From Squalus acanthias (taxonomy: Eukaryota): a stretch of 60,000 bases of DNA. Of the stretch, positions 7,460 to 58,400 are shown in pieces (within the stretch, counting starts at the first letter, position 1; the number at the start of each line of letters is the position of its first letter). A program made the position numbers and the translations under genes. The notes beneath the pieces were generated by a model. That model made no database searches and had not been told where the DNA came from. It saw only the letters and a program-made list of their open reading frames with translations. The DNA lies in contig CM059432.1 of assembly GCA_030390025.1 (NCBI GenBank), positions 71,488,001 to 71,548,000 on the forward strand, written 5' to 3'.

Positions 7460-8283
7460 GGGCTCGATTTTCCAAGCCCCATGGAGGCGGGTTTGGAGGC
7501 GGGAGTGGTGGGAAAATTGCAGATTCTGGGGCACGTACCCATCCCGCCCCCAACCCGCCTCCATGCCAATGTCCCAGGAGGTGGGTACCCAACCTGTGCT
7601 GGGAGCCGCTTCCCCGAGGCGGGAAGGGGATTAGTGCCAATTAACTACCTGTTAACAGGCAGTTTTTTGGCTAATCCCTATTTTTAGCCCTGAAGTGTGG
7701 GCTGCCCGACGGCTCCAAACCACGCCAAGTTAGCAAGGCGGACCATCGGTCTGCAGGGCTTGGAGATGTCCGGTGTACAGGTGAGTGATGGGTGCATGAG
7801 TGCAGACGTAAGTGTGTTTGGTGTGTGTAAAGTGTTTTAATAAGTTTTACTTACCTTTACTTTCTCCTCCAGGCGTCCTCCCTTCAGTTCTCGAGAGTCC
7901 CTCAGCTCACCGGCACAGAAAGCAGAATGGCCGCTGAACTGTCAAAAGCTGCAGCCTCTGCTTTCTGGTCTGGAGAGCTCTCTAACTGAGTCTGAGTAGA
8001 AGGACTCAAGTTAGAAGACAGATTGTCAGTGTTTGACAGCTTCACAGAGCTGTCAAACGCTGATATTTCATCTGTCAAAAGCTCTTGACAGATGAAATGT
8101 CAATCGCTGACGTCACCAGTATCCAGGTGTCCCTTAATTGGCCTGCTGAGCCCGCTGGGCAGGCTTAACAAGGTCAATCAAGGGAAAGTAGTGTGGATTG
8201 GCCACAAATCGATGGAGGCGGGACTACAACCCAAAAAGTGGGAGTCCCGCCTCCATCATGTCCCCGTTGACAAAATCGAGCCC
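7460..8283. mobile_element. Harbinger-type MITE (824 bp)
   Basis: Perfect 12-bp TIR GGGCTCGATTTT / AAAATCGAGCCC, TSD ATT (7457-7459, 8284-8286). Confidence 0.92.
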
Positions 8284-10393: not shown

Positions 10394-11161
10394 GGCCCTG
10401 ATATAAACGGGAAGGCGGGGAGGGAATGGGGGAGATCAAAAGTGGCACAAGAACCCCGCGAGGCTGGGGGCATGGAGGTCCTGCAAAACATAACGGTAGG
10501 ACCTCATTAACAGTTTTATTCCTTTTCCCACTCAGCAGCCGACCAGATTGACAGGCAGACCGGCTGGCTGCCAGGTGGGGCAACCAGCAGCAGGAGGCCA
10601 CACCAGTCCCCAGCAATCAGGAGGGCAGGCAGGCTGCAGATTGGAGCTTGGAGGAAGGGGGGTGTCGGACTTGATCGCGGGAGGGGGGAAGAGAGAGAGG
10701 CCATCGGGGGATGGGGAGGAGGCCAGCGATCACGGCAAGGGGGAGAGCGAGGCCGCGATCGGCAGAGGAGAAGCCAAAGACTTCCTTGAGGGGCCGGGGG
10801 GTCGGGGGGAGCACTCCTGCTTCTCCTGACCCACAAGGAGTGCTGTAAAAGGCATTTACCTTCTGGAGCCGGCAGCTCCCGCCTCGACTTTTGGTCCCGG
10901 GTTTCCCGAGCCATGGAAAACCCGCACGGCATCTGTAAAATTTAAACCAGGCTCCCAATTGCACTGTGGGAGCCTGGTTTAAATATGTTAATGAAGTGCT
11001 CCACCTTTCCACGGCAGGACACTAACATGCCTCACTACCCACTGCCATAAAAACGGTGGCAGGCGCGTAAGAGTCGTGTTGGGGTCGCGTTTACTGCCCC
11101 ACCCCCCTGCCCCCTGACCTCCTCCCACCTGTCATAGGGAGAGGGAGTTAATATCGAGGCC
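10394..11161. mobile_element. Harbinger-type MITE (768 bp)
   Basis: TIR GGCCCTGATAT / ATATCGAGGCC, TSD AAT (10391-10393, 11162-11164). Confidence 0.85.
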
Positions 11162-15269: not shown

Positions 15270-15810
15270 AATATCTACGCATTTACCTGGTGGCCCGGGA
15301 GATACGGAGGCTTGTAATCCTGGGCCTCTCTGGGTACACGCGGGCAGAGGTCAACATATCCCAGGGCGCATGCGGTTCGCAAGTGCCCCTGGGATCACAT
15401 GGGTTGGCTCAACCAATAAAAGAAGGGAATCCCCATTCATACTTATGGGAGTTCTGTACGTACAGAACTTCCATAAGTATGAATGGGGATCACTTAAAAA
15501 TACACGAACACATGAAATAATTTTTTTTTAAATTACATATTTAAAATTAATTAAAATGCCGTTTATTTAAATATTTTAAACAGGCGTAAGAATTTCACGG
15601 GCATTCAGCGGGCAGAAGTTGGGCAAATAGCACAACTCTGCACCCGCAGAGGACCTTCACCCGGGGATGCGGAAGATCTGTCAAGATTGACATATCGCAA
15701 GTTCCAGGTTTTAGCGCATGCACTTCGCATGCCTAAACCCGGAACTTGCACGGCCCCTATGGGCGCATGCGCACCTCATATGCACCCGTAGGGTCACAAA
15801 ATATGGCCCA
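15270..15810 (-). mobile_element. Partial MITE, same family as the Penelope host at 38893-42266
   Basis: Reverse-complement similarity to 38893-39387 and 42051-42200. Ends AAATATGGCCC. Confidence 0.8.
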
Positions 15811-16339: not shown

Positions 16340-18890
16340 GTACACCCATTGTTGTTGTACCTAAGTCAGATGGTAAGGTAAGGTTGTGTGGTGATTATAA
16401 GGTAACCGTAAACCAGGTTCTAGAGTGTAATCTACCCAATACATTGCCAAATGTGGAAGATTTGTTCACAACGCTGACAGGTGGCCAGATCTTTTTGAAG
16501 TTAGATCTAACAAACGCCTACCTACAACTTGAGTTAGATGAAGAGTCCAAGTCATGCTTGACTATAAATACTCACCGAGGCCTATATCAGTTCAATAGGC
16601 TACCATTTGGAGTGTCTTCTGCCCCAGACATACTCCAGGGGGTGATGAACCAAATTTTGCAAGGGATTAAAGGGGTAGTGTGTTATTTAGATGACATACT
16701 CATTTCATAACCAAACAGGCAAATCCATGATGGGGTGTTGAATGAAGTGCTCAAACAGCTAGAGAAGCACAGAGTATGAGTGACAGCTCACAAGTGTGAG
16801 TTGTTTCAAAACTCAGTGGAGCACTTAGGGCACAGAGTATACAATGATGGTTTACATCCAACCAAGGGAAAGCTGGATGCAATCAGAAATGCACCCACTC
16901 CCAAGAATGTCTCTGAACTGCGATCATTTTTGGGTCTTTTGAATTATTATGGAACTTGGCTACATTGTTACAGCCACTGAATGAGCTGTTGAGAAAACAG
17001 ATCCCTTGGAAGTGGTCAAAAGAATGCGACACAGCATTCAAAGAGTGTAAAAGCCAGTTGGTAGAGAGTACCATGTTAGTTCACTACGATGTATCTAAGG
17101 AGATCAAGCTAGCATGTGACGCCTCTCCGTACGGAGTTGGGGCAGTGATCTCTCATGTACTAGATAGTGGGGAGGAGAGATCAATTGCTTTTGCTTCATG
17201 CACTCTCAGTGCCAGTGAGCGGAATTATGCACAGATCGAAAGAGAAGCTTTGTCATTGATTTTTGGGGTCAAGAAGTTTCACAAATACTTGTTTGGTCGT
17301 AAGTTTACCATAGTTACTGACCATAAGCCCCTGAAAGCAATCTTCCATTCAAAGTCCCCAGTTCCAACATTAGCTGCAGCCCGAAGGCAAAGATGGGCTT
17401 TGATTTTGTCAGCGTATACGTATGACATTGAGTGCAGACAATCAGCTGACCACAGTCATGCTGATGCTATGTCCAGGTTGCCATCCCCATCACAAGTTAC
17501 ACCCAATAAGGAAGAAGAGTTCTATTTCTCATACATTGATGAGCTGCCAGTCACAGCTGAAGAGATTGGTAGGGCAACCAAACGTGACCCAATTATGTCA
17601 AAGGTGTATGATTACTTTGCAAAAGAATGGCCAAACCAGGTATCAGAGGAAGAGATCCATCCATACTTCATTCGTAGGAATGAATTGTCAGTGGATAAAG
17701 ATTGTATCATGTGGGGAGCAAGAGTGGTTATCCCAAATAGGTTCAGGTCTAAATTGTTAGGAGATCTTCATGACCAGCACTTGGGAATGTGCTTGACCAA
17801 GAGCTTTGCACGCAGTTACTTATGGTGGCCAAGTTTAGATAAAGAGATAGAGTACATAGTCAGTCAGTGTACAACATGCCAATCGGTGAGCAAGAAACCA
17901 CCATTATTACCATTACAGCCATGGAAATGGCCTCCCAGAGTGTGGCAAAGGTTACATGTAGATTTTGCTGAGTTAGAAGGACAGCAATTGTTCATAGTGA
18001 TAGTCATTCCAAGTGGGTAGAGGTGTTTCCGATGCGGATAATAACAACAAGCAAAACACTAGACAATTTGCGAAGATTGTTTTCTTCATATGGCCTCCCA
18101 GAAGAAATTGTGTCTGATAATGGGCCACAATTTTGTTCAGAAGAGTTTACAAAGTTCATGAGCAGAAAAGGTGTGAAACTTTCCAAAGTTCCACCATACC
18201 ACCCTGCTTCAAATGGTGCAGCAGAGTGCACAGTGCAAATTGTCAAACGTGCCCTCATCAAGCAAATGTTGGATCCAAATCCAAAGAAACGCCTGTTGTC
18301 ATTGGACCACAAACTGGCAAATTTTCTGATTACCTATCGGAATACTCCTCAAACCAGCAGAGTTGTTTCTCAAATGACAGCCACGAACCAGGTTCTTGTT
18401 GTTAAAGCCAAACTTGGCAGAGTCCGTAGAAGAAAAACAATCAAGGCAGAAAGAGAGTCATGATAAAGGTAGAGTTAGAGAGAGAAGTGTGAAGTTGAAC
18501 CAGAAGGTTAGAGTGAAGAACCATCACCATAAATGGTTAAAGTGGTTACCAGGAAGAGTAGTGAAGATATGTGGCCCTCGCACATATTTGTTCAAGATGT
18601 TTGATCATGGAAAGGTTAGGTTTGTTCACATTGATCATATCTTACCTACAGATGTGCTAGGAGTTAAAAGCTGGGATGATTTAATTTATTCTGATGAGTC
18701 AGATAGTCATGTTACAAGTAGAGTACCAGTAGCAAATCCTACATCAGATGTACCAGAAACAAGTCCAAGACAAAGTCAGAATTTAAGTCTGAGCCCGAGT
18801 CAGGCAGATAAACAGTCTGAAAGTGTAGCGAGTCCAAATGTAGATCAAGGTCAGCCCTTGGAGAAAAATTCACCCGCAGGCTCAGCCTAG
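16340..18890 (+). pseudogene. Gypsy pol (RT, RNase H, integrase), frameshifted
   Basis: PIVVVPK..RLCGDYK, RLPFGV, YLDDILI, LACDASPYGVG, TDHKPL, H..H...C..C, IVSDNGPQF, PYHPASNGAAE. Confidence 0.95.
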
Positions 18891-27102: not shown

Positions 27103-28634
27103 ACTACAACAACAACAACTTGCATTTATATAGTGCCTTTAACGTTAGCACAGCAGCAGCCTGGACTCTGCAAAGGAGTGGGGACCTTCAGAAAGAAATC
27201 AAAAATAAATCCATTTTTGTGTTTGCAACTAAGGTATAATTCTGATGGGAATCCAACAATCACAGTTGCAGGATGAATTATATACACTTCTGTGAGAATT
27301 TGGATGCAGGTGTAAGCTGGCAGAGCAAAGATCAGATTTAGAATTGCAATGGTAGTGGAGCTAAAATGCTAAAGGAAAATGAGCTTAAATAACTGCAGTA
27401 AGGCTTGTCTCTACAAACCCCACTTTCTTGCTTTTGCCCATAAAATTGGTGTCATATTTTCTTTCTTGTAAGTGTGAATTGATTGTGCCCCTACACAATG
27501 AGACATAAATTAAACATTACCTTACACACAATCTGGGAACCCAAACTAACAGAAATTGAAAATTATTTAATCATCGCTACTATTATGATGTGACATCAAA
27601 GTTTTGTGTTGATTTGAACTGGAACTGTGAACTACTGAAGTCAATACAGTCCTCCCTTAAAATAATACACTTCCTAGGAGGCAAGGGTGAGAACGAGGTT
27701 TTGTATTGTATTGTATATGTGAAGCATGTGTAAAAACATTATTGGAAGTATACAAATGTTAATATTATATATCATAATCAATGATGCTTTTCAGTCATTT
27801 CACATAACTTAGCATAGTGCAAAATACACTGGTCAATGTAATGTAGCTAATTTGTATCAACAATTGTAGCACTTATCCATTCATTGGTTAATACCAAATA
27901 AGAATGGAAAACGCTGGAGTTACACGGCAGGTCTATCAGCATCTGCAAAGAGAAAAGATCGGTTAATGTTTCAGGTGTAAACACATTGGCCTGGAATTTG
28001 CAGGTCGGGATGAGGGCGAACTGGCAGTGTTCGGTGTCATTCCGCCTTTGAAACTGACTGCTACTGCGGGATTTCCTGCAGATTCATGCAGATCTTTCCT
28101 TTCTTTTGTATCCCTAACTCCCATTCTGAATGCATTATTCTTAACATAGCCCTTTAACAAGCACCTTTTTACCTTTGTTTCAGTACTCTTCTGATACCCA
28201 TTTTAGACCATAAGACGGAGGCTAGCTATAATAATGGAAGAAATGTTCATATCCCCTTTTAATCATCAATTTCATTGCATCTACTTTTTTATTCTCATTA
28301 ACACTGAAAATCTCCAGGTTTCTAGCACAATTAGCAAGAGGACTGGTTGCAAAGGTAACAGTATGTTAGACAATCCTTTGTAAATTGGCAAAGGAGCACG
28401 TGCCTGGCTTTTAAGCAATGGATAATGCTTGAACAGATGGTAATCTTACAAAATTTAAAAAAGTCAGACTTTTTTGTGCTGTATCTGGAAACTACCCGCT
28501 CTCACTTTGAGATAAGAGAATTGCCTTAAGAATTTTATTGAATCTGCCCAGATGGAGATAGCCTCAAGCAAAATTAAATTAACCAAAACAAGATTCGGAG
28601 ATGAGAATTCCAACTGAGGTATCAAAGTGTTTAA

Positions 28635-28730
28635 ACAGAAACATAAAATGCTGGCAGCAGATCAGTCAGCATCTGTGGAGAGAACAGGAAAATTTATGTT
28701 TTGGCTGTGGACCCTTCTTCAGAACTGAAA
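28635..28730 (-). mobile_element. Decayed Penelope-like pLTR end with a degenerate hammerhead
   Basis: Resembles 39430-39525 (GCATCTGTGGAGAGA...ACCCTTCTTCAGAACTG). A similar remnant lies at ~27905-27980. Confidence 0.55.
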
Positions 28731-30199: not shown

Positions 30200-33100
30200 T
30201 GAAAGAAGTTGCTTCCAGATATGGTGGCCTGGTTGGGCTTCCTCTGGGAATTGAACATGACTGGGAGAATGAAGAGAGGTCACATAGAGCAAGACAAGCT
30301 GCTAGAAGAAGGAGGAGGAGGAGGGGGAGAAGGGCACTCAGCAGGAGGCCATATCCATAAAGGGTCTTTAGGGAGAAATTCTCTTACCTTAACATCAGCG
30401 AGGACCAATGCATGTGACCTCTTCGCTTCACTAAAGAGGTCGTGAGTGAAATCTGCCAAATGCTGCAGTCACAACTGAAGCTTCAAAGCAGGGCAAGGAC
30501 AGCATTGCCTGTGACTGTCAAGGTGACTGTAGCTCTTAATGTTTATGCATCTGGTTCCTTTAGTAAACAGCTCACAGTCTGCAGTGCACTGCTGCATAAT
30601 GGAGGTAACTGAGGCTCTCTATACGAAGAGAAACACATTAATCTCATTCCCTCTTGCGAGAGACAAGCAGGAGGAGCCAGCATGAGGTTTTGCACTGATT
30701 GCAGGCTTCCTCATGGTGCAGGGTGCCATTGACTGCACACACATTGCCTTGCATGCTCCTCATCTGAACTCGGCCATTTTCATCAACCAAAAGTGATTCC
30801 ACTCCCTCAATGTGCAGCTGGTGTGTGACCACAGGCAGCGCAGCATGCAGGTAAATGCCCATTATCCTGGCAGCAGTCATGATTCTTTCATTCTGCGACA
30901 GTCCTCTGTTCCACCTGTATTTAAACCACCAAAGCAAGTCGAAGGCTGGCTGCTAGTCAACAAGGGTTATCCCCTCATGACATGGCTCATGACTCTGGTC
31001 AGGAACCCACGCACATGTGTGCAGCAGGCATACAATGAGAGCTATGCTGCTACAAGGAACATTATAGAGCACATCATTGGCATCCTCAAGCAATGCTGCC
31101 TGGACCGTCTTGGAGGAGCATTGCAGTACTCACCTGAGCAGGTAGCAAGATTTCAGAAAGTATGCTGCATGCTGCGCAACCTGGCTATTATGAGGGAACA
31201 GCCTTTGCCACCACCTATTAAGCGAGAAGCTGAGGAACAGGAGCACGAGGCGGAAGAGGAGGAAGTGGAGGAGAAGGAAGTGCAAGAGGAAGTGGAGAAG
31301 GAGGAAGAGGAAGGGAGGCTACAATATAGACAGCCTCTTTCTGCCCAGGCTCTACATGATCAGATTATTCATGAGCGATACCAGCAATCCTGTTGATCTG
31401 CTGGAGAACAGATTGATGAACTGCTGTGACGCCTTCGAAGCCCCTTTGAACAGTAGTATCCAGAGCCACAATGGCAGCAGTCTGAGCTTGCAAGGCAGCA
31501 GTCTGAGATGCCACTGCAGCACTCAGACTTTTGATGAAAGCTGCTTGTGCTGCAATAGAAGCTGTGACATCAGCCACCAGATGCTGCATCATGGTGGGTT
31601 CCACAGGTGTGCTGATTGAGGTGGACCACCAGTTCCATGTTGGAAAAGGTGGACTCCAAGCTCTGTGCATAGCTTTGTGCCAAGTTGGTGCTGGACTCCT
31701 CCATTCTACTTGACATTGAGCACAGGCTTTCTTGTAGGATTTCCAGTGCACCAAGCATTTGGTTGTGTACACCCATCAGTCTTCTTCTGTAGCTTGGGCC
31801 ATCAAAGTCCTCATCTGAGTCCACTGCAGCAGAAATAATGTGTGACTTCACCCTTCGGCGAGCAGGCATCTGCGCTATCCTTGCCCCCCCCACCCCCACC
31901 CTGGCTCCTGTGCACTTGTGCCCAGTTTCTCACCACATGCATATGCCCCCTCTATCCTAGCCTCTAAAATACATGCTGTGTCAATTTCAAGCTGGTGGCT
32001 GCGAGTGTAAGATCGAGTGACGGTGTCTCTTCATCATCACTGTCTTCTTCCTCTTCCTCCTCTAACTGGGAAGGTTCCAATTCTTGGCTATCTGAAATGA
32101 AAAAGGGACAAGGTTTGGGTTCTGATGAGGGGAGAGGAGAAAGTAAGAAGTGCCTGATTACAACATCTGTAGCTTGTGAGTCAAAAGAGATTCAGTAATG
32201 CCAACCCCACAGTCTCAAAACTCAAGAGACAAACTCTCAAGAATCAAGAGATTTGGTATATAAATCATGAGTTGCTATTTTTCAAACATAAACAAATAGA
32301 GATTGGCAGTTAGCTTATAAAACTCATTAATGGCTTATTTAATTTCTAACAGGTCAGTGCTCTATACAAAAACTATTACTGCACCTGAAAATGCTGTACA
32401 AAAAACCTTTAAAAAAAATCCTAGCTTGTCCGTGCCCAGGTGGCCTGGAGAAGGAGCATGTGGTGTCCGCCGGTACATTTGAGGCCTTTCGCGACCAGTG
32501 GGTACCGCAGGGACTGGCGTGTGTGCTGGACAAGGGTGATAATATTTCATTTTAAAAGTTTCCTTTTGTTTTAGTTCTTTATTAGTTGTGCCCCTATAAA
32601 AAAGGGGGCACTTTTGTTCGATGGGAAGACCCCAATGTCTCCTTATTGATTTATTAGAAAAAGCAACAAAAAAGATCTTATGCAACCTGCAGCTACAGTA
32701 ATGTATTTTGCATCCTGAGCATTGCATGTAGTGCATTGCCCCTTTAAGAATTGTCAAGTGGGGGGAGGAATCGAAACAAAGCCCGGTGGAGCTGGTCCCG
32801 CCTTCTTTTTGGGCAGCCATGTCTGATTGGTCAGCACAGACGTCAGTCGCGGCGTTATGGTACCCAGACGTCAACGACCTGCAAGCTTGTCTTCCGGTGA
32901 GGGAGCGAGGCTGCAGAGAAACGGACGCCATGTTTGATTGTGGAGTGTAATCTGCTGCCCGCCTTAAAAGCCCTGAGATTTGTGAGTTCTATTGTGAGAT
33001 CATGAGTGAGGCTTAATTTTACTTAGAAATCGCATCTCTCGTGATAAATTCGCGAGACTTGGCATGTCTGGAGATTGTGGGATGAGGGAGAAGTGGGATG

Positions 33101-34104: not shown

Positions 34105-35797
34105 AGTTTCTCCTTATTTACTCTATCAAAACCCTTCAAAATTTTGGACACCTTCTATCTCCCCTTAACCTTCTCTGCTCTAAGGAGAACAATCCCAGTT
34201 TCTCTAACTTCACCACATAACTGAAGTCTCTGTCATCAGTGCCGCCTTTGTCATCTGGTTGAAGATCCTCATCCAATGCTGCACCATGTATCAAAGCTGT
34301 CTTGCCTGCAGCGGACCACTATGATACAGGACAAACTCCATGAGCTGTATTAGAGGAAGCCACCAGACCTGCACAGGCAGCAGGTATAACTGAAGGTGGG
34401 GCCTTATCCTGTGTGTCTCTCTCATTTCCACTTTCTCCTGTTCCTGTCTGCCACCATCAAAAGGACATATATAGGAATGGCCATCGAGAACCCCATGACA
34501 ACGGCTCCATGACAGAGTGTGGGTAAGGAAATCATTCCCTTCTTGAAGCTGCTAAAGAGCAGTTTGCAGAATTCTTTCTTAGTTGCGCAGCTGAGATAAG
34601 ATTTTTCAAATTACTTTAGTCAAAGCTTATGGTTCAGATAAAGGTTTTTGGACATTCAAAGCCTGTGAACTCAACCACTGACAATTTATGCTGATAACTT
34701 ACCCCTCTTTTCTATAGCTGCAATTCTGGTATAAATGGCAGAGTTTCTGGGACAGCAGCTTTCCCCTCATTATCTTGTCATTTGCAAACAACACCACTTT
34801 ATGGGGCGGATGAACCTGCTGCCACTAGCCAATTTTACTGGAATTTAGTATCTATTTTAGAATGGGTGTAGCTTTAGCATATCTGACTTACACTCCAAAT
34901 TCTGATTCTCTTCCAGAACTGGACCACTTTTGCACTAAATAAAAACATAATTTTCAGGCTCCGGAAGCATAAGTATGGCAGAAGAACCTCTGGCCCCAGT
35001 CCAAAGCTGGTGACACCGTCCCAATTCTCAGGATCATTTGGATGGATGAAGCAGTCGGGTCACTCATCAACGGGACCACTTTGAGCACTGGCTGGAATGT
35101 TGGAGTGGTGCCCTGACCTCCAATGGTGGACAGGAGGCCCAGCAACACTCCAATGAAAATTCTTCTCTTCACGTGGAGAAAGTGGCACCTTTGAGAAAAT
35201 AATCAATCACCTCTGTAAAGGTTTAGGACTTCTTAGTTCCCTCAGCGGGATGCATGCCAATGCTCAGCTGGTATGAGTTCTCCTGAAGTCTATGTAAAGG
35301 ACTAGAAAGGCAGAGGAACCTTGTTGTGCAGATACACAGATCATTAAAGTTGAAAGCATAAGTAGATAAGGGATGGGAATTTCCTTTGAGCTGCTCCCAT
35401 TCCACATCTGTAACTTCACTGGAAGTGCAGCAGAAGCTCCCTTTATGCTCATAAAATCTTACTATTTGATGTGTATTATTTCACATTTTTCTACATTTTA
35501 CTGCATCTGCCACCTATCTGCCCATCCTGCTTGTCTATCTATGTCCTCCTAGAGTCTTTTATAATCTTCATCACAATTTACTATATCCGTCCATTTAGTA
35601 TCAACAAATTTTGATATTAAATCCTCAATCGCTAAATCCCAATCATTTATGTAAATTATAAGTAAGAACCGTCCCATCACAGACCTCTGAGGAACACCAC
35701 TCACCTCATTTTTCCAATCCAAGAAGCTTCCTTTAAGCACCACTCTTTGCTTTATAACCATCTCTCTATCCACATGGCCATGTTCCCCTTAATTCCC

Positions 35798-35992
35798 TGT
35801 GAGAAGTCGCACAACACCAGGTTATAGTCCAACAGCTTTATTTGAAATCACAAGCTTTCGGAGCGCTGCTCCTTCGTCAGGTGAAGTGCGTCGAAAGCTT
35901 GTGATTTCAAATAAAGCTGTTGGACTATAACCTGGTGTTGTGCGACTTCTCACATTTGTCCACCCCAGTCCAACACCGGCATCTCCACATCA
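35798..35992. mobile_element. Miniature palindromic Penelope-like insert
   Basis: 63-bp perfect inverted arms (35798-35860, 35892-35954), 38-nt tail, 13-bp TSD TTAATTCCCTGTG (35789-35801, 35993-36005). Confidence 0.88.
35848..35884 (-). ncRNA. Minimal type I hammerhead ribozyme
   Basis: UCAC-CUGACGA-A-GGAGC-AGC-GCUCC-GAAA-GCUU-GUGA: conserved core, 5-bp stem II, 4-bp stem I, palindromic stem III. Confidence 0.85.
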
Positions 35993-38112
35993 TTAATTCC
36001 CTGTGTCATCATTTTTGATGCAAGCCCCTTATGTGGTACCTTGTAAAATGCTTTTGAAAATCTACATAAACCATTACATTTTCTTTATCTAAGATCTTTG
36101 TTTCTTCAAATAATTTTATAAGGTTAGTCAAGCATGCCCTACTTTTTAGAAATCTGTGCTGATCTGTGCATTATTAGCTCATGTTTCTCCAATTGCTTAG
36201 ATATTAATCCTGTATTAAAATATCTATTAGTTTATATCCAATAGTTTACCAACAACTGAAGCAAGACTAACTAGCCTATAAGTTCCTGCTTTATCCCTGT
36301 CTCCTTTTTTGAACACGGCTGTCACATTTGTTACACTCCTGTCTTCTGGCACAGTTTTCCTTTCTACAAAAATTTAGCACAGATCCTGCGCTATTTATTC
36401 CTGAGCTTCCCTCAGGATCCTCAGATATAAACCATCAGATCAATCCCAGTGATTTGGCCAGGTGTTTTGATTTTAATAGTTTGCTTTCAATCTCATCATG
36501 CAGAACAACAAAAAAGAATAATTTGGCAGATGACATTTTGTCCTGAGTTTGAGGAGAGGAAGAAATTGTCCATGTGGCTTCTATTTTACTGAATTGTACA
36601 TGGGTCTTCTGTTTGTGAAAGCAATGGTGGGAGAGGAGTCAGTACATGTGGTTGGATAAGAGAATTATTGTGTCTGCAATGGGCTGTGGAGGATGATGGG
36701 CAACAGAAGAGTGTGTTGAGTTATTGCATTAATATTTACAGCAAAAAAGTATGGGCGATGCATGGCAAGCAGAAACTCAGCAGGCGGGGAGTTAAAAATG
36801 CCCAGGAGACTTGCCCACTGGCATCCTGCTCCCTTCCTGCAGTCTTCAAATTTAACCTGCTCTTCTGAGCAGACAGAAAGGATACCAACCAGAAACCAAT
36901 AGGGTCCTTCTTTAAATATGCAGCTCGGGGTCCAATGACCCCCAAGGAGATCACTTCGCACAAAAAGTATGTACTGTATCACATTAATCAGGGCCACAGT
37001 GGTCTCCTGGATTAGTTTTGATCAAATAAGGGGGTCAGAGAGGAATTTTACAGATTTCCTTTCCCAAACTGGCCTGGGTTTTCCGCCTCTCTCAAGAGAC
37101 ACATGCCTTTTGGATGGGGTAGGAGTGTATATATTGTGATACACAAAGCATCACAGTTGTGTGGGACAGACTGGATGGACCAGAGGGTCATTCCCTGTCT
37201 GTCATCGTTCATATGTTCATATTTCATTGGGGCTCGTCTGCTATTTCAATGGGTGCCCTGAGCGGGGAAGCCATTGCAACTTTTCCGTCAAGTGAAGCTA
37301 GTGGGTAGAACTATTTTTAACTTTCTTTGTGGGGCCAAGAGGAGCAGGAGTGCCCCGGGCTTAGCCCCTCCTGTTTGAAAGGCCCTCCCAAACCCTCTCC
37401 TGGTGAATTATCTGAGTGCTGGGGACAGTTCCTTTGGTCACCAGCGATGGCATCCTGTTACCTGACATTCCGCTCCCACCCGTCAGCCAGCTGCCACTTC
37501 CCATCGTTTCAGGTGGGCATCTGACCAGGGGCATGCAAATAAGGCCTGGAGTTAAAATTGCCTCACACTGCTGATGGTCTCCACCTGCCCACCCAAAGTT
37601 AAAATCAGGACTGCACAGTTGGGGCTCAGTTATTTGGATATGTTATGACTCAAAGGGTGTCTACACCTTTGAAATGACCATAATTTTGAAGTATCATTTT
37701 TTATAACAGAGGATGACAGCTAATCTTTTTTTTGGCGGGGGTGGGTGGTAGAGGGGCAGGCTTTACTGGTCTAGGGCCCAAGTCCAGATGCCTTAATCCA
37801 GCTATCCTCCACTGTGCTCAGAAGATTAGAACTCAATGTCATTTCTCAAAACAATTTGCCTTCCTGAAGCAACTACATAGGAACAGGAGTAGGCCATTCA
37901 GTCCCTCGAGCCTGTCCTGCCACTCAATTAGATTATGACTGATCTCCAGTAAACTCCATTTACCGCCTTGGTTCCATATCCTTTAATACCGTTACCTAAC
38001 CAAAATTTATCAATCTCAGTTCGCTGTGCCCAGGCGATTCAGTGTGCCTAGGTGCAGAACCAGGAGAGTTTCTCTCTCTTAGTTACTTACATGGCTTGTA
38101 AGTAAAGATCTG

Positions 38113-38815: not shown

Positions 38816-39486
38816 CTGGGATATAACAAAACAAGTTTACTTTTGGAGATAACTGTAGAGGTAACAGAAAACGTTTTATGTTGGATAAATATTGGCCCAT
38901 ATATTCTGATCCCTATGGGTGTGTACGCGTTGTGTACACACCCGTAGGGACATCGGAAATGCCCGTTTCAGGCATGCGAAGCGCATGCACTGAAAACAGG
39001 CATTTCTGATCTGTCAAGAATGCTCTTGACAGATCGGACATCTGCCCTAAAGAAGGGCCTCTGTGGGCAGAGAGTTCCGCTTTCTGCAGATTCTCCGCCC
39101 GCAGAAAACCTTTAGAAATCTTACGCCTGGTAAAAGCAGTTGAAAAAAAGTAAAAAAAATATTTTTTTTTCACTCATTTATAATTTTAAAATAGTTTTTA
39201 AAAAGGTAAGTTTATTTTTAGCCCCGTAAAAAACTTTAATTACTTTTTCCAAAAAATTAAATTTTTGTTTCAAATATTTAATTTAATGTAATTTTAACTC
39301 ATTTTAAAAACGTGTTTTAGTGTCTTTTTGGGGTGATTTGATAGGTCTATCTGTCAAAAGTATGAAGGGAGATTCCCTTCTCCTATTACGATAGCAAAAT
39401 ACTGCAGATGCTGGAAATCCGAAATAACAACAGAAAACGCTGGAAAAACTCAGCAGGCCAGGCAGCATCCGTGGAGAGAGAAAGAG

Positions 39487-39523
39487 AGTTGACGTTTCAG
39501 GTCGATGACCTTTCATCAGAACT
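39487..39523 (-). ncRNA. Minimal type I hammerhead ribozyme (inverted-arm copy)
   Basis: Exact reverse complement of 41951-41987. Confidence 0.85.
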
Positions 39524-40314
39524 GGGAAGAGCTGGAAATCAAATAGATTTAAGGCCAGGGTAAAGCTGGGAAAAGGGGGAGGGGATAAAGGAACAAAGGA
39601 GGAGATGAAGAGACATTAAGAGACATTAAGAGATATGCAAGGCTAGAGGTGGTGTTAATGTGACAGATTAAGGCTGAATGAAGTGTGAAATCTACTGGCA
39701 GAATGAAGGACAGCTGCCAGCTTCTAGGAGGAAAAAAAAGGGTGGGGGGGACAAATAAAAGGGTGGATAAAATAAAATATAAATGTGATTGGAGCTGAGG
39801 TTATGATCTAAAATTGTTGAACTCGATATTGAGTCCAGAGGGCTGTAGCGTGCCTAAACGAAAGATGAGGTGCTGTTCCTCGAGCTTACGCTGAGCTTCC
39901 GTGGAACAGTGTATTAGGCCGAGGACGGTGAGGTCAGAGTGGGAGTGAAGCGGTGAATTAAAGTGACAGGCCACCGGGAGCTCGGGGTCCCCCTTACGGA
40001 CTGAACGGAGGTGTTCCGCAAAGCGGTCACCCAATCTGCGTTTGGTCTCCCCAATGTAGAGGAGTCCACATCGTGAGCAGCGAATACAGTATACTAAATT
40101 GCAGGAAGTACAAGTAAATCGCTGTTTCACCTGGAAGGGGTGTTTGGGGCCCTGGACAGTGGGAAGAGGGGAGGTATAAGGGCATGTGTTGCATCTCCTG
40201 CGCGTGCACGGGAAGGTGCCGGGCGAAGGGGAAGGGGTGCTGGGGGTGGTAGAGGAGTGGACTAGGGTGTCGCGGAGGGAGTGGTCCCTGCGGAATGCTG
40301 AAAGGGGAGGTGAG

Positions 40315-41673
40315 GTACAATCCCTCTACACCTCCATTCCCCACCAGGATGGCCTGAGGGCGCTCCGCTTCTTCCTTGAACAGAGGCCCAACCAGTCCCC
40401 ATCCACCACCACCCTCCTCCGCCTGGCTGAACTTGTTCTCACATTGAACAACTTCTCCTTTGACTCTACCCATTTCCTCCAAATTAAAGGTGTTGCTATG
40501 GGTACCCGCATGGGTCCTAGCTATGCCTGCCTTTTCGTGGGATATGTGGAACACTCTTTGTTCCAGTCCTACTCGGGTCCCCTCCCTCACCTCTTTTTCC
40601 GGTACATTGATGACTGTATCGGTGCCGTCTCCTGCTCTCGCCCTGAACTAGAACATTTCATTCACTATGCTTCCAATTTCCACCCTTCCCTCACCTTCAC
40701 ATGGTCCATCTCCGACTCTTCTCTTCCCTTCCTCGACTTCTCCATCTCCATCTCTGGGGATAGGTTATTGACTAACATTCACTACAAGCCCACCGACTCC
40801 CACAGCTACCTGGACTACACTTCCTCCCACCCCGCCTCCTGTAAGGACTCTATTCCATTCTCCCAGTTTCTCCGTCTCCGCCGCATCTGCTCTGATGATG
40901 CCACCTTCCATACCAGTGCTTCCGACATGTCTTCCTTTTTCCTCAACCGAGGATTCCCCTCTACCGTGGTCGACACGGCCCTCGACCGTGTCCGTTCTAT
41001 CTCCCGCACATCTGCCCTCACCCCTGCCCCTCCCTCCCGGAACCACGATAGGGTTCCCCTTGTCCTCACCTTTCACCCCACCAGCCTCCACATTCAACGG
41101 ATCATCCTCCGCCATTTCCGCCACCTCCAGCGTGATCCCACCACCAAACACATCTTCCCCTCACCTCCCCTTTCAGCATTCCGCAGGGACCACTCCCTCC
41201 GCGACACCCTAGTCCACTCCTCTACCACCCCCAGCACCCCTTCCCCTTCGCCCGGCACCTTCCCGTGCACGCGCAGGAGATGCAACACATGCCCTTATAC
41301 CTCCCCTCTTCCCACTGTCCAGGGCCCCAAACACCCCTTCCAGGTGAAACAGCGATTTACTTGTACTTCCTGCAATTTAGTATACTGTATTCGCTGCTCA
41401 CGATGTGGACTCCTCTACATTGGGGAGACCAAACGCAGATTGGGTGACCGCTTTGCGGAACACCTCCGTTCAGTCCGTAAGGGGGACCCCGAGCTCCCGG
41501 TGGCCTGTCACTTTAATTCACCGCTTCACTCCCACTCTGACCTCACCGTCCTCGGCCTAATACACTGTTCCACGGAAGCTCAGCGTAAGCTCGAGGAACA
41601 GCACCTCATCTTTCGTTTAGGCACGCTACAGCCCTCTGGACTCAATATCGAGTTCAACAATTTTAGATCATAA
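40315..41673 (+). CDS. 5'-truncated but uninterrupted PLE reverse transcriptase + Cys-rich linker + GIY-YIG endonuclease
   Basis: VQSLYTSIP, GVAMGTRMGPSYA, RYIDD, PFLD, YKPT, C..RRCNTC, VYCIRC..CGLLYIGETKR..R..EH, E, GLN. The ORF track's first 43 aa come from the inverted arm. Confidence 0.95.
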   Translation, partial: VQSLYTSIPHQDGLRALRFFLEQRPNQSPSTTTLLRLAELVLTLNNFSFDSTHFLQIKGVAMGTRMGPSYACLFVGYVEHSLFQSYSGPLPHLFFRYIDDCIGAVSCSRPELEHFIHYASNFHPSLTFTWSISDSSLPFLDFSISISGDRLLTNIHYKPTDSHSYLDYTSSHPASCKDSIPFSQFLRLRRICSDDATFHTSASDMSSFFLNRGFPSTVVDTALDRVRSISRTSALTPAPPSRNHDRVPLVLTFHPTSLHIQRIILRHFRHLQRDPTTKHIFPSPPLSAFRRDHSLRDTLVHSSTTPSTPSPSPGTFPCTRRRCNTCPYTSPLPTVQGPKHPFQVKQRFTCTSCNLVYCIRCSRCGLLYIGETKRRLGDRFAEHLRSVRKGDPELPVACHFNSPLHSHSDLTVLGLIHCSTEAQRKLEEQHLIFRLGTLQPSGLNIEFNNFRS

Positions 41674-41950
41674 CCTCAGCTCCAATCACATTTATATTTT
41701 ATTTTATCCACCCTTTTATTTGTCCCCCCCACCCTTTTTTTTCCTCCTAGAAGCTGGCAGCTGTCCTTCATTCTGCCAGTAGATTTCACACTTCATTCAG
41801 CCTTAATCTGTCACATTAACACCACCTCTAGCCTTGCATATCTCTTAATGTCTCTTAATGTCTCTTCATCTCCTCCTTTGTTCCTTTATCCCCTCCCCCT
41901 TTTCCCAGCTTTACCCTGGCCTTAAATCTATTTGATTTCCAGCTCTTCCC

Positions 41951-41987
41951 AGTTCTGATGAAAGGTCATCGACCTGAAACGTCAACT
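41951..41987 (+). ncRNA. Minimal type I hammerhead ribozyme in the PLE pLTR
   Basis: AGUU-CUGAUGA-A-AGGUC-AUC-GACCU-GAAAC-GUC-AACU. Predicted cleavage after GUC at 41983. Confidence 0.87.
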
Positions 41988-42959
41988 CTCTTTCTCTCTC
42001 CACGGATGCTGCCTGGCCTGCTGAGTTTTTCCAGCGTTTTCTGTTGTTATTTCCCTTCTCCTATTGGCTGGCCTGGCCCACGTGATCCCAGGGACGCTTG
42101 TGAACTGCATGCGCCCCTGGGATACGTGGGCCCTGCGCATTTCGACTGTGGAGAGGCCCAGGAGCGGAAGTGTCCGGACCTCGGAACCCCTCAGGTAAGT
42201 TCGTAGATTTTTTTCCGATAGGAGACATCCGCACGCAGGAAGCCTCCTATCGGAAATTACGGGCCCACTAAGTTAGCAGAAAGACAAAATTCCAACAAAG
42301 TGTTCCCATCAATCCCCAATTACCATTATCGTGCTACTAATATGAGGTTGTAAAGTGCAGAACACTTCGTGCTGCATTTTGCTAGATGTTCTCATAAAAC
42401 CTAATGTATAGTTATAATAAAACTGGAGATTAGCATTTGAGCAGCATCCTTTTGTATATGGAGCGTTACACCACTGCGTATAGTACAAGAAATCTCATTA
42501 AACTTCTTGACAATATATTCACTTTATTTCAGTAGAAAGATCACATCCACTGTATTATTAATATTACCCATGTTTATGACCCATAAAACTACGGATGATT
42601 TTCCTGGCTCTGCACCCAGGCACACTGGATCGTCTGGGCACAGTGAATATCAGAAAATCGGGTGGGTCGGAGCACATGTCTTTAAAGTTTGAATCGCGAG
42701 TAAAAAATATTTTTGCATTTTCAATTACATTTTGCTGCATTTTTGCCACAAGCATTAGTTGGTTTTCCTGGGTAGACTGCCATTTTTGACTTTTTAAAAT
42801 ACTTTTCTTCATTATTCTTGGTCATTGCTGCCATTTAAATAGCACCATACAAAGTGACGAGGATGGGAATTCCTTTGAGGGTCCCCATTGCACTACATAA
42901 TTTATTTGAGGAAGACAATTTCACGAGTGGACAAAAAAGTCAGAGGTAATGACATCTGA

Positions 42960-44220
42960 GGCCTTTTGTTAGCCCCCATCACTACACAGGCGCAGCATTT
43001 CTAGACCCCTCTACACATAACTAGTCATTTCAGAGGAGACCTGCCTTCACTGCCTCCACTTCACAAAGCAAGCTGTCACTGAGGTGTACCATCTGCTGCA
43101 GGGTAACCATCAGGCAATATTTGGAACTGGAATGGTTCTTCTTGCAGAAGTGACGGTGAACTGGACCCTTCACATCACCACGGGAAACATCTGCCACATC
43201 AGGCAGTCTACAGTGCACGTATGTATCAAGGAAGTGACAAATGGTATGTTTTCAAGGGACAACGCCTTCATCATATTCTCAGTGGAAATTAAGGCGTCAG
43301 CTGGACAGGGCACAGAGCTTTACCTGAGTGGCAGGGTTCCCTCACAGATGCAAGGCATCAAAGACGCTACCTCTCTGGTTATCAGAGCTGCCCATTTCAA
43401 TCCATGACCAATGTGAACAGGAAGGGTTTGCACACAATGGGCTAAAAATTGAGTCGCGCTCCATTTGGGGCGCTAACTTCGCCAGGGCGCTACTTTTAGC
43501 GCCCCGGAAAAATTAGCGCCCCCACGACCGAAATTGAGTGGTAGTGCCCCAAGAGGGAAGCGGGGCGCTACTGGAAGCGCCCCGCCTCCCTCTTGGGGCG
43601 CTGTGAGGGAATATCGCGGCGCTACGTGCCGTGGTATTGCAGGCCTTCCTCCCCTTCTTAAAGGGGAGGGGCCTTGCGCAGCGCGACCCGGGGCCCAGCT
43701 GGGCCCCCGGGTATCGGGAGTGCCGGCAAAAGAGCCCGGCACTCAAGAGAAGTGCCGGGCTCATGGAGCGCAGCCAGCACTCCGCGGGGACGCGGGTAAG
43801 GAGGCCGGGGACGGGAGCGGAGGCAGGTGCTGGCAGGTGGCCAGCAACAAAAATGGCCGCCCAGCACCTCGCCTTTAAATAGCGCCACCCCGGCCGCAGG
43901 TAGGCCCCCTGACCCCATCGGACATAGAGTGCGGCGGTAAGTCGGGGGCGCTATCGAAGATCGCGGCCGGGGCGCTGCGCACGGTGATGATGTCATCGCC
44001 GGAGGCACAGCGCCACGGGGCACTAATGGTTAGCGCCGCTGCTAACCTCCTGCTGAATTTCATGAGGCATTGGCGGCGCCGCACCCGGGCGCTAGTTGCT
44101 TTGCGCCCCATTAGCGCCCTCTTGGGGCGCTAATGGGAGGCGCAAAGCAACCAAACTTTTCCCCCAATTAATTTTCAGGTGGTATCTGACCACAGAAGCA
44201 TCATTATGCACATCAATAGC
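42960..44220 (+). pseudogene. Very old Harbinger transposase fragment split by a MITE
   Basis: ICHIRQSTVHVCIKEVT. Joining across the MITE gives RKGLHTINFQVVSDHRSIIMHIN. Confidence 0.7.
43439..44165. mobile_element. GC-rich Harbinger-type MITE (727 bp)
   Basis: TIR GGGCTAAAAATT / AACTTTTCCCCC, TSD AAT (43436-43438, 44166-44168). Terminal similarity to the 893-bp family. Confidence 0.88.
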
Positions 44221-46451: not shown

Positions 46452-48704
46452 GGGGGAGTAATTCGGTAGCTTAGTGCTTCCAGTTAGCACCTGGTGGTGG
46501 TGCTAATGGGGCGCTGAGGCAGTAGCACCACGGCGAGGCGAATCCAGCGGCGCATGCCAAATTCGGCCCCCCGTAGTGCCGCCACTACGAGTCAGCGCCG
46601 GGGACTTCAGTGCCAGGCAGATCGTGACGTCAGCGAGTGTGCAACGCTCACTGGGCGCCCGATCTGCCAAATTGAGTATTGGCCCCCTGCCTTAGTGCCT
46701 GGTCCTGACAGCGACAGGGAGAGGAGGCATCAAACAGGCGGATGTTGGCTCCAGGGGCGCCACTTAAAGGGATCATTACTAATGAGTCGCAGCTGTCAGG
46801 TTAGTGGTGTTTCACTGCTTCCTTGTCAGTTTGGGATAGTTAAAGAGTTGAATTCATTCATTCAAAGGTTGTTTAGTCACCGGAGTGTTGCGGCTTCTAA
46901 AAGTTAGTTACATTTATTCTCACAAAATATCAAAGTGCTTCCTTACATTAATGGGGGCTATACTGGCAGTCGACCTCGCCCTCCAGGATCTACTGCGGCA
47001 GGAGCGCAGGCAGTGAGAAAGATTGGAAAATGTGGCCAGAGGGAGGAGGAGGGCCATCAGGGCTCTCAACAGGAGGCCTTACCCTCTGAGGGTCTTCTGA
47101 CAGCAATTCTCCGACCTTCAATTTATCCAGGAGCAGTGTATTAGAAGGCACCGCTTCAGTAAGGAGGTGATCACAGAACTCTGCCACCTCCTGCAACCAG
47201 ACCTCCAGTCTCAGATCAGGACAAGGATGGCTCTCTCAGTGGCAGTCAAGGTCACCGTCACAACAGGAGATATAGGTAACATCTCGCAGCTCGCCGTCCA
47301 TTGCTGCATCCGGGAGGTCACAGAGGCTCTCTACAGTAGGAGAAGGGACTATATTTCCTTCCCCATCACCAGAGAGAAGCAGGAGGAGTGTGCATGTGGC
47401 TTTGCCAGGATAGCGGGATTCCCCATGGTGCAGGGTGCCATTGACTGCACCCACGTGGCTTTGCGGGCACCACATAACAATCCTGACATCTTTCGTAACC
47501 ACAAAGGCTACCACTCACTTAATGTGCAGTTGGTGTGCGACCTCACACAGCGAATTCTCAATGTGAATGCCCGCTATCCTGGCAGCAGCCAGAATGCCTT
47601 CATCCTGTGCCAGACTGGTGTGTCAACACTCTTCCAGCCACCACATCAAGCTCGCGGCTGGCTGGTCAGAGACAAGGGCTATCCGCTCTCCACCTGGCTC
47701 ATGACTCCCCTCCACAACCCCAACACGTCTGCACAGCACTCATATAATGAGAGCCATGCCGCCACCAGGAACATCATCGAGCAGACCATCGGGGTGCTCA
47801 AGCAATGGTTCCGCTGCCTTGACCACTCATGAGGAGCCCTCCAGTACTCACCCACACGGGTGTCCCATTTCGTCGTGGTCTGCTGCATGCTCCACAACTT
47901 GGCCATCATGAGGGCCCAGCCCTTGCCAGCAGGGATTGCGGGACCATCTCAGGAGGAGGAAGAGGGAGAGAAGGAGGAGGAGGACAAGGAGGAGGATGAG
48001 GAAGGTGAGGTGGAGGAGGAGGAGGAGGAACAGGAGCGAGGGGGGAGGCAGCCACTCAATCGGCCTTCCGGAAGGGCAGTCCGTGACCGCCTCATCAGAC
48101 TGCGGTTCCAATAAATTAAACCCCGGATCCCCATTGCTCACCACATCCCCATCATTCCATGCCTGTTGCAGGCCATATCACAGTGCACAGCTGAAATGAG
48201 AGAAAGTACAAAATTATCCGAAGTGAATTAATAAATTTATCAATAATCAGTGAACACATCTTTACAACAACAATATTTACTATTCACCCTTCTGCCATCC
48301 CTTAGTGCCTCGTGTTACTGTGCCTTTGCCTACTCTAGTGCTCCTACAAAGTGTTCACCCAGTAGTTGCAGCACGGTTGGTGGAAGGCTGCTGAGTATCC
48401 GTGCAGGAGACTTCAGATGGCCTTGCAGGAGAGATCATGGGGGGGCGGGGGAAGAGATCGGATCGTGGGGAAGGGGGCAGATCACAGAAGGTTTGCTTGA
48501 GGAGCCGGGGGAAGCACTCCTGTTACTCCTGGCCCACAAGCATTGCTGGAAAAGTACTTGCGTGCTGGAGCCGCCAAACCCACCGCGGTTAAACCAAAAG
48601 TATGCATGTTCACAGCAGGTTGGGTTGGGTTTCCCCTTTTTAACAATTGAACCCCCTGCTCCCACTACTCTCCCACCCATCCTCTCATCGTTAAAATTCC
48701 CCCC
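46452..48704 (+). mobile_element. Harbinger left end and transposase fused to the right end of a different MITE
   Basis: TIR GGGGGAGTAATTC, transposase ~46949-48114, switch near 48430 to sequence like 10690-11160, end AAAATTCCCCCC. Confidence 0.8.
46949..48114 (+). pseudogene. HARBI1-like transposase (best-preserved copy, still disrupted)
   Basis: GFPMVQGAIDCTHV, NHKGYHSLNVQLVCD, YPGS, DKGYP, HAATRNIIEQTIGVLKQWFRCLD, CCMLHN, poly-E tail. Confidence 0.92.
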
Positions 48705-55400: not shown

Positions 55401-58400
55401 ACATAAGAACATAAGAACATAAGAAATAGGAGCAGGAGTAGGCTAATTGGCCCCTCGAGCCTGCTCCGCCATTCAATAAGATCATGGCTGATCTGATCCT
55501 AACTGCCAATCTACTATCACAGAACCATCTCCTGAACCTAACAGAATTGGACACACGAAATAGGAGCAGGATCAGGCTACACGGCCCCTGGGCCCGCTCC
55601 GCTACCCACAGGGCCATGACCGATCCGAACCTAGACTCATGTCCAAATTCCTGCCCGCTCCCCGTAACCCTTAATTCCCTTTACTTCTAGGAAACTGTCT
55701 ATTTTTGTTTAAAATTTATGTAATGATGTAGCTTCTACAGCTTTTTGGGGCAGCATATTCCATGGACCTACCACCCTCTGAGTGAAGTAGTTCCTCCTCA
55801 TCTCAGTTTTGAAAGAGCAGCCCCTTATTCTAAGACTTATGCCCCCTAGTTCTAGTTTCACCCAACATCGGGAACATCCTCCCCGCAGCCACCCGATCCA
55901 ACCCCTTCACAATCTTATATGTTTCAATAAGATCGCCTCTCATTCTTCTGAACTCCAATGAGTAGAGTCCCAATCTACCCAACCTCTCCTCATATGTCCA
56001 TCCCCTCATCCCGGGATTAACCGAGTGAACCTTCTTTGTACTGACTCGAGAGCAAGTATGTCTTTTCTTAAGTATGGACACCAAAACTGTATGCAGTATT
56101 CCAGGTGCGGTCTCACCAATACCTTGTACAACTGAAGCAATACCTCCCTATTTTTATATTCTATCCCCCTAGCAATGAAAGCCAACATTCCATTGGCCTT
56201 CTTAATCACTTGCTGCACCTGCATACTAACCTTTTGAGTTTCGTGCACCAGGACCCCCAGATCCCTTTGTACTTCAGTACTTTCCAGTTTCTTGCCATTT
56301 AGATAATAACTTGCTCTACTATTTTTCCTGCCAAAGTGCATGACCTCACACTTTCCAGTATTGTATTCCATCTGCCAAATCTCTGCCCACTTACTTAGCC
56401 TGTCTAAGTCCCCTTGCAGATTTTTATGTCCTCCTCACTACTTTCCCTCCCATCTTAGTATCATCTGCAAACTTTGATATGTTACACTCGGTCCCCTCCT
56501 CCAAATCGTTAATATAGATTGTAAAGAGTTGGGGACCCAGCACTGACCCCTGCGGAACACCACTAGTTACTGATTGCCAGTCTGAGAATGAACCATTTAT
56601 CCCAACTCTCTGCCTTCTGTTAGATAGCCAATCCTCTATCCATGCCAAAATATTACCCCTAATCCCGTGATTTTTTATCTTAAGCAATAATCTTTTGTGT
56701 GGCACCTTGTCAAATGCCTTTTGGAAGTCTAAATACACCACATCCACTGGTTCCCCTTTATCCACCCTGTATGTTACTTCCTCAAAGAACTCCAGCAAAT
56801 TTGTCAAACATGACTTCCCCTTCATAAAACCATGCTGACTTTGTCCTATTAAATTATGATTATCCAAATGTTCCGTTACTGTCTCCTTAATAATGGACTC
56901 CAAAATTTTACCTACCACAGATGTTAGGCTAACCAGTCTATAGTTTCCAGCCTTCTGTCTACTGCCCTTTTTAAATAAGGGTGTTACATTAGCAGTTTTC
57001 CAGTCTGCTGGGATCTTTGCTGAGTCCAGGGAGTTTTGGAAAATTATTACCAATGCATCCACAATCCCTACCGCCACTTCCCTCAAGACCCTAGGATGTA
57101 AGCCATCACGTCCAGGTGATTTATCCACCTTGAGTCCCATTATTTTACCGAGTACCACTTCCTTAGTGATTTTGATTGTGTTTAGCTCCTCCCCCCCTAT
57201 AGCCCCCTGTTTGTCCAGTGTTGGGATATTCTTAGTGTCCTCTACTGTAAAGACTGATACAAAATATTCATTCAGTGTTTTTGCCATCTCCATATTTCCC
57301 ACCATTAATTTCCCGGTCTCATCCTCTAAGGGACCAACATTTACTTTAGCCACCCTTTTTCTTTTTATATAACTATAAAAACTCTTACTATCTGTTTTTA
57401 TATTTTTTGCTAATTTACTTTCATAATCTATCTTCCCTTTTTTAATCAATCTTTTTGTTATTTTTTGCTGTCTTTTAATGTTTTCCCAATCCTCTATCCT
57501 CCCACTAGATTTGGCTACCTTATACGTCCTTGTTTTTAGTCGAATACTATCCTTAATTTCTTTACTTAGCCACGGATGACTGTCTTTTCTTTTACACCCT
57601 TTTCTTCTCAGTGGAATATATATTTTTTGGAAGTTGTAAAATAACTCCTTAAATGTACACCACTGATCATGTATCGTCTTACCCTTTAATCTATTTTCCC
57701 AATCCACTCTACTCAATTCCACTCGCATACCTTCATAGTCTCCTTTATTCAAGCGTAGCATGCTTGTTTGAGATCCAACCTTCTCACCCTCTAATTGAAT
57801 ATGGAATTCAACCATGTTATGGTCACTCATTCCAAGGGGATCCTTTACTAGGACATTTTTAATTAATCCTGTCTCGTTACACAGGACCAGATCTAAGGTT
57901 GCTTGCCCCCTGGTCGGTTCAGTTACATACTGCTCAAGAAACCCATCCCTAATACACTCAATGAACTCATCCTCAAGGCAGCCCTGCCCAATTTGATTTG
58001 TCCAATTAATATGATAGTTAAAATCCCCCATAATTATAGATGTTCCCTTATTACAAGCCTCAACTATTTCCTGATTGATACTCCGTCCAACAGAGTTGCA
58101 ACTGTTCGGAGGCCTATAGACTATGCCCACTAGTGTTTTTTCCCCTTATTATTCCTTAGCTCCACCCAAACTGTTTCATTATCCTGATCTTTTGACCCAA
58201 TATCATTTCTCTGTATTACAGTGATTCCTTCCTTTATTAACATAGCCACCCCACCTCCCCTTCCTTCCTGCCTGTCCTTCCTGATCGTTAAATAACCTAG
58301 TATGTTTAATTCCCAGGCATTGTCACCCTGAAGCCATGTTTCTGTAATGGCCACAAGATCATACCCATATGTAGTTATTTGTGCCATTAACTCGTCTATT

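Follow-up and report, generated by a model that had tools for sequence, protein, structure and literature searches.

A fold-back insert with a net length of 191 bp (35802-35992) is located between two direct copies of the 13-mer TTAATTCCCTGTG (35789-35801 and 35993-36005) in the window, i.e. the whole stretch of 60,000 nucleotides that was analysed. Its inverted repeat arms, 35798-35860 and 35892-35954, are complementary at 63 of 63 positions, form the longest perfect inverted repeat at this locus and are separated by a spacer of 31 nt (35861-35891). The tetranucleotide TGTG at 35798-35801 is both the end of the left 13-mer and the start of the left arm, and a stretch of 38 nt (35955-35992) separates the right arm from the 13-mer on that side. 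On the top strand the insert reads as antisense family positions 87 to 1 followed by sense positions 29 to 129; positions 1-28 are exclusive to the left copy and the tail is exclusive to the right copy. The first-pass annotation had described perfect arms of 63 bp, a one-sided tail of 38 nt and a TGTG microhomology at the tail-less end, all of which were confirmed; its length of about 195 bp holds with TGTG counted, the net insert being 191 bp. The hairpin has a folding z-score of -20.2, with none of 200 shuffles folding equally well, and 2 of 20,000 randomly drawn window pairs had a 13-mer in common (pairs less than 300 nt apart were skipped). No further copy of the small element was found within the 60,000 nt. 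The following features were assigned (PLE, Penelope-like retrotransposon).

35468-36436, minus strand: host sequence, a decayed LINE reverse-transcriptase (RT) region interrupted by the insert (tblastn with the window's own LINE ORF)
35789-35801: left copy of the target-site duplication, 13 bp; its last four nucleotides, TGTG, match the tail-less element end; site empty in organisms B and C
35802-35888, minus strand: longer, tail-less copy of the family 3' end, 5'-truncated, in sense on the minus strand, with the whole minimal hammerhead; family contigs agree with it as far as 35888 and carry other letters beyond
35848-35884, minus strand: predicted minimal type I hammerhead (motif, constrained fold and palindrome check)
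35889-35891: junction filler CGT, 3 nt, or a microhomology join with small deletions (from the sequence; fillers of 1-8 nt at other junctions)
35892-35954, plus strand: shorter 5'-truncated copy, which begins within hammerhead stem II and has the ribozyme 3' half only
35955-35992, plus strand: 38-nt tail, with the sequence of family members, on the right side only (summed depth 0.9-3 million in three DNA-type runs)
35993-36005: right copy of the target-site duplication, 13 bp
39375-42065, plus strand: comparison element of another family, a 5'-truncated RT/GIY-YIG PLE

In the predicted hammerhead, stem I is UCAC/GUGA (4 bp), followed by CUGACGA and one extra A. Stem II is GGAGC/GCUCC (5 bp with a 3-nt loop), followed by GAAA, and all that remains of helix III is the palindrome AGCU. 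Of the complete minus-strand hammerhead annotated before, both core boxes and stems I and II stand, with helix III consisting of AGCU only. The predicted cut lies between 35852 and 35851 of the minus strand and the right copy starts 8 nt ahead of it; as had been noted, only the 3' half of the ribozyme is found in this opposite arm, the copy starting inside stem II. A scan of both window strands for hammerhead cores with a paired stem II returned three sites, one here (core start 35880, minus strand) and two in the element at 39-42 kb, and no core on the plus strand of the insert. No Rfam hammerhead family matched the window at E ≤ 1. In the computed fold of the full-insert transcript (-133.6 kcal/mol) the 63-bp stem dominates, with predicted pairing probabilities of about 0 for stem I and below 0.01 for stem II. 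When two isolated ribozyme copies were cofolded, the helix III dimer was not the minimum-energy structure; the method ignores tertiary contacts, which makes this outcome uninformative. Judged by its motif, the ribozyme is a minimal, dimer-type PLE hammerhead, predicted to be buried by the long hairpin, and such a minimal motif would be unable to form helix III alone. In the available text of Cervera and de la Pena (2014, PMC4209133), the minimal hammerheads of PLE repeats are mostly single motifs of truncated copies, and the minimal hammerhead of metazoan PLEs, which the motif here matches, was inactive in cleavage as a monomer and weakly active as a dimer. The predicted helix II has 5 bp here versus 7-8 bp in the Schistosoma families described there.

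Empty site and age of the insertion

Contigs of four sequencing runs (X1, X2, X3 and X12; 24 listed) were compared with 35560-36240 at 88% likeness, 55% of X1 being read. From organism B and from organism C, a single contig (X2 record 17 and X3 record 24, respectively) spans 35560-35788 and 35993-36240, with consecutive record positions at the junction (865/866 and 1038/1039, respectively). Missing from both is exactly 35789-35992, which corresponds to one copy of the 13-mer plus the 191 bp, so that the orthologous site is empty in two of the two other organisms compared. These contigs differ from the window by approximately 5-6% (13 or 14 of 228 letters and 13 or 12 of 247). The filled site is represented in organism A by X1 record 1, a single-copy flank contig that enters the element up to 35812.

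The insert interrupts the LINE reverse-transcriptase region of the host sequence. Matches of the LINE ORF flank it on either side (amino acids 474-495 at 36060-35995 and 492-507 at 35802-35755). The empty site, together with the alignment to the LINE reverse transcriptase that resumes across the insert, identifies the 13-mer as a target-site duplication and bears out the 13-bp duplication proposed earlier. The insert is a real, lineage-specific insertion. Most simply, it postdates the divergence of A from B and C, and the identical arms fit such an age; that B and C lost it exactly, through recombination of the two 13-mers, would be a less parsimonious explanation.

Abundance, ends and joints of the family

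The family of the insert is very abundant. Depth over the arm bins, which is a sum over contigs and not a copy number, amounted to 0.7-4.6 million in three DNA-type runs compared with 10-22 for single-copy flank contigs, and the rough bounds for the family are 2,000-200,000 copies. The depth at the centre (35890) was 1,461, 1,254, 2,169 and 0 in X1, X2, X3 and X12, i.e. 0.07%, 0.11%, 0.14% and 0 of the depth at 35836, and part of it comes from intact family sequence that was assigned to the wrong arm and carries two inserted C. A recurrent junction variant was considered for these insertions (35890/35891) and rejected, since intact family sequence placed on the right arm gives them. In run X12, which is RNA by guess only, the family is present at zero centre depth. 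Upstream of 35888 the family goes on with common sequence (40 and 42 loose ends with an agreement of 0.83-0.84 in X2 and X3, respectively), which shows that the source is longer than the stub at this locus. Small shares of the sequence words occurred in the metatranscriptome runs X16-X20.

Ninety-eight joints were found, of which 15 were listed, and at least eight further arm-to-arm joints were readable from a second listing. The readable distinct arm-to-arm joints, 23 after three duplicates and one go-back joint had been left out, all differ, and the offset between the two 5' ends ranges from -27 to +101. Several other joints carry fillers of 1-8 bases, resembling CGT at 35889-35891. Among the 15 joints listed, 14 have fewer than 30 letters on the short side and are weak singly, and hairpin fragments are possibly under-sampled in short-read libraries. 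As a set, the joints nevertheless demonstrate the recovery of fold-back junctions and their variation. The reference junction cannot register as a joint, hence its absence among the 23 is no evidence. The first-pass annotation had contrasted a recurring centre, expected for an independent family, with a varying one, expected for truncations; the rarity of the centre relative to the arms and the varied junctions point to truncation. The extreme truncation that it had offered as one explanation is favoured by the abundant arms and tail, the varied joints and the upstream continuation.

Some joints reached a depth of 100-270, i.e. 10-25 times the single-copy value of approximately 10-22, and two of the 15 listed recurred in two runs each (35831-35913 in X2 and X3, 35839-35914 in X1 and X3). 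A few fold-back units may thus be multi-copy. Joints of this depth, such as 35831-35913, 35855-35948 and 35881-35937, could represent multi-copy units, hot spots or library artefacts. A few of these joints form loop-free, near-perfect palindromes. The go-back joint leads from 35952 to 35920 and represents a head-to-tail arrangement; it is one among the 12 of 46 rows listed.

The 3' ends of the family concentrate at two places, the tail-less site (35797-35800, with its mirror up to 35957) and the tail end (35989-35994). Loose ends behind 35993 start with GACT in all four runs, so that the T at 35993 is shared, which is the 1-nt match at the tail end. The arm contains the words AATAAA (35910), TATAA (35926) and TCACA (35950), the last located 19 nt after TATAA, a spacing resembling that between TATA and initiator in a rotifer pLTR, as given in the available part of PMC3846280. 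The tail-less end coincides with the initiator-like word TCACA, and the family sequence seems to read ATG at the tail end. Judged from these words, the tail may be the 5' leader of a next unit.

An RT-coding parent of the small element, which for an EN+ PLE would have one ORF for both a telomerase-like RT and a GIY-YIG endonuclease, was not found in pattern scans and protein searches. When viral, metagenome and prokaryote collections were scanned for exact matches to family motifs, none of the six scans returned one, which is expected for an animal repeat and uninformative. A 55-aa frame had no match at E ≤ 0.01 among 61 candidates when compared with longer proteins, and blastx of the element against 121 proteins gave none at E ≤ 1. 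A 32-aa sense frame covering arm and tail was compared with 1.84 billion representatives; the one match (E 5e-5) was the translation of a tandem repeat without RT and was dismissed as chance. In the literature covered (subscription journals, Repbase/Dfam and bioRxiv supplements lay outside it), neither this shark family nor the palindromic PLE stub as such was the subject of a paper, and the family may well be catalogued already.

Identity of the insert and route of integration

Taken together, we consider the locus, with a probability of roughly 80%, to be one insertion in which the 3' end of a very abundant repeat, likely a Penelope-like retrotransposon, is present as two short copies head to head, most likely produced by twin priming with an early stop on both sides. 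Its identity as a truncated PLE-type insertion is the firmest part and very probable, an autonomous parent is probable, and twin priming as the route is moderately favoured. The assignment to the PLEs is likely and draws on the end anatomy and the ribozyme type. At the locus and in the family we found a minimal type I hammerhead by motif, varied 5' truncation, fixed 3' ends, an inverted 5'-truncated copy joined at its 5' end and a 38-nt tail on one side; the duplication of 13 bp was derived from this one locus.

In the available parts of the literature, an inverted, 5'-truncated copy and a tail of 30-40 bp on one end are standard PLE features (PMC8557442, PMC8969392), and the same inverted copy with a 30-40-nt tail belongs to the published PLE anatomy (PMC8557442, PMC3846280, PMC11167929). 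The insert shares with the complex insertions of EN+ PLEs (Craig et al., 2021, PMC8557442; Arkhipova et al., 2013, PMC3846280) the head-to-head inverted copy, the tail on one end (38 nt here), strong 5' truncation and a hammerhead in the end repeat. A short duplication is common to both, 13 bp here compared with 8-10 bp for rotifer PLE-type inserts (PMC3846280). Unlike the published insertions, the copies here are approximately 101 nt or less, with no ORF and no direct pLTR pair. Similarly, PAc, the Poseidon element of Anolis carolinensis (Frangieh et al., 2024, PMC11167929), has two preferred 3' ends that flank the tail and a hammerhead upstream. In this comparison of layouts, the geometry of our insert is compatible with both strands of the target being cut and extended.

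Both outer ends of the insert are element 3' ends, each joined to one copy of the duplication. Since each arm has bases that the other lacks, the second half of neither strand was copied from its own first half, and simple fold-back self-copying cannot make the insert. For the preferred twin-priming route, the parent GIY-YIG/RT protein would nick both target strands, leaving a 13-nt staggered cut with 3' overhangs. The top-strand end would anneal to the inner start site of the RNA over four nucleotides (TGTG) and copy 87 nt, and the bottom-strand end would prime at the tail end with a 1-nt match, copy about 101 nt and halt at the base of stem II. Both reverse transcriptions would stop early and the cDNA ends would be joined by repair with the 3-nt filler. 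The product was likely dead on arrival, having no coding capacity and a single ribozyme buried in the 63-bp stem.

Twin priming is supported by the available text on the PAc enzyme, a predicted dimer that cuts the two strands, extends each of them and has two start sites bounding the tail (PMC11167929). Against an annealed start, the same source has the Anolis enzyme in vitro starting at RNA sites without homology to the cut DNA, unlike the 4-nt match at the tail-less end here, and the fourth base that matches TGTG is variant-dependent, position 35954 being T in 57% of the X1 depth. Furthermore, Arkhipova et al. favour self-priming, on another template, for inverted junctions, as far as the available part of PMC3846280 goes, which speaks against twin priming.

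Several other explanations have to be weighed against the twin-primed insertion of an autonomous element. The parent could be a non-autonomous element, given that no RT-coding parent or other ORF was linked to the insert. The stub would then be of the same type, and its RNA would come from a short PLE derivative, SINE-like or retrozyme-derived, using the enzyme of an autonomous PLE. Derivatives of this kind have been described, according to the available text of PMC8557442 and bioRxiv 10.64898/2026.07.22.740005; non-autonomous families typically reach such very high numbers, and the go-back joint is a head-to-tail arrangement in DNA. However, strong 5' truncation of an autonomous element also predicts many 3' ends, and the ribozyme is of the minimal PLE type and not of the canonical type of retrozymes (PMC7229834, available part); we regard this origin as unlikely. 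Less probable still is that the palindrome itself is the mobile unit, a fold-back mini-retroelement transcribed and re-inserted whole. The perfect arms, the joints at 10-25 times single-copy depth, two of which recur among the 15 listed, and the depth across 35890, which is not zero, would fit it, but the centre has at most 0.07-0.14% of the arm depth, partly from misplaced family contigs, and none in X12, the family extends upstream of the stub, and the hammerhead is predicted not to fold in the hairpin transcript. That some fold-back stubs of the family are mobile, as palindromic non-coding mini-retroelements of two Penelope ends re-copied whole by the parent enzyme, seems marginally less improbable, though very doubtful as well. 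If true, such units would be the retro-counterpart of MITEs, the joints at 10-25 times single-copy depth would be sub-families, and this locus would be a member or the founder of one.

A MITE, i.e. a non-autonomous DNA transposon, or a microRNA precursor would also be short and non-coding with a long inverted repeat, and weak Rfam matches to plant miRNA hairpins were obtained. These matches scored 49.9 and 38.4 bits versus gathering scores of 90 and 80, and we rejected a known microRNA precursor, no curated family matching above its gathering score. A MITE was ruled out because its inverted repeats would have to abut a short fixed duplication. Here 38 nt lie between the right arm and a duplication of 13 bp, and the family contigs are mostly one-sided with varied 5' ends and lack a uniform two-ended structure, which leaves this pair of explanations almost no credence.

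A retrozyme was rejected too. The published non-LTR retrozymes (Cervera and de la Pena, 2020, PMC7229834; Li et al., 2026, 10.64898/2026.07.22.740005) resemble the insert in being short and non-coding, in their type I hammerhead and in a proposed ancestry from PLE ends, so far as the available text describes them. Their units are arranged head to tail in tandem with a ribozyme per unit, whereas the insert is head-to-head and has one minimal ribozyme, a single minus-strand core with none on the plus strand. Their hammerhead is canonical with a helix III, in place of which only AGCU is present here. According to the same sources, release of a retrozyme unit takes two same-strand ribozymes; hence the locus should be unable to act as a retrozyme and, judging from its one predicted motif, to release a unit-length circle. 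The retrozyme-like or independent parasite suggested by the first-pass annotation was not supported, given the rare centre, the single hammerhead, the lack of a same-strand tandem and stem pairing probabilities below 0.01.

Thus, the locus is ordinary, in a pattern already described for PLEs, and not a new mini-parasite. Its modest value lies in being a clean record of PLE integration: everything from the two ends to the junction and the empty site can be read, and each arm has bases missing from the other. The PLE integration cycle is still described as unresolved in the available parts of PMC8557442 and PMC11167929, and thousands of such young stubs, together with the empty sites of related species, would allow a genome-wide test of twin-nick priming versus self-priming. 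For annotation it should be kept in mind that PLE stubs of this kind resemble MITEs or miRNA hairpins.

The neighbouring PLE and the rest of the window

The large PLE at 39-42 kb shares the layout of the small insert, a longer tail-less and a shorter tailed copy arranged head to head with a duplication of 13-15 bp, as the same architecture claimed before implied. It has 895-bp identical inverted arms (39421-40315 and 41159-42053), a 33-nt tail on the shorter copy (39388-39420) and a GIY-YIG domain, and its best named relatives, 64-70% identical, are from whale shark, rays and bamboo shark, which assigns the window to a cartilaginous fish. The best local score between the two elements was 15 and blastn gave only 14-nt chance matches, in agreement with the earlier statement that they are unrelated outside the ribozyme core. 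Of the further proposal that a second PLE family follows the same integration rule, the sequence-unrelated family and the shared layout were retained, and the rule itself is the published PLE anatomy. The tail-less end of the large PLE also shows an overlap of 1-3 nt between target and element (39373-39387, 42051-42065). At 15340-15450 on the minus strand lies a paralogous empty site of its host repeat, in which the target is present once, supporting the duplication of 13-15 bp; a 62-bp palindrome (15429-15490) abuts this site. Two older same-strand fragments (27890-27976 and 28640-28727), approximately 750 bp apart, are 71-74% like the end of the large PLE, and the latter has a hammerhead-like core.

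The window consists mostly of mobile DNA. Fragments of LINE (endonuclease, RT), LTR-retrotransposon (RNase H, integrase zinc finger) and DDE_Tnp_4 transposase ORFs were identified at 12261-14457, 16917-18020, 30797-31396, 47101-47832 and 56424-58145. Short palindromes of 42-60 bp are located at 8061-8102, 10940-10984, 43543-43602 and 44095-44151, two of them with sub-threshold miRNA-like Rfam matches.
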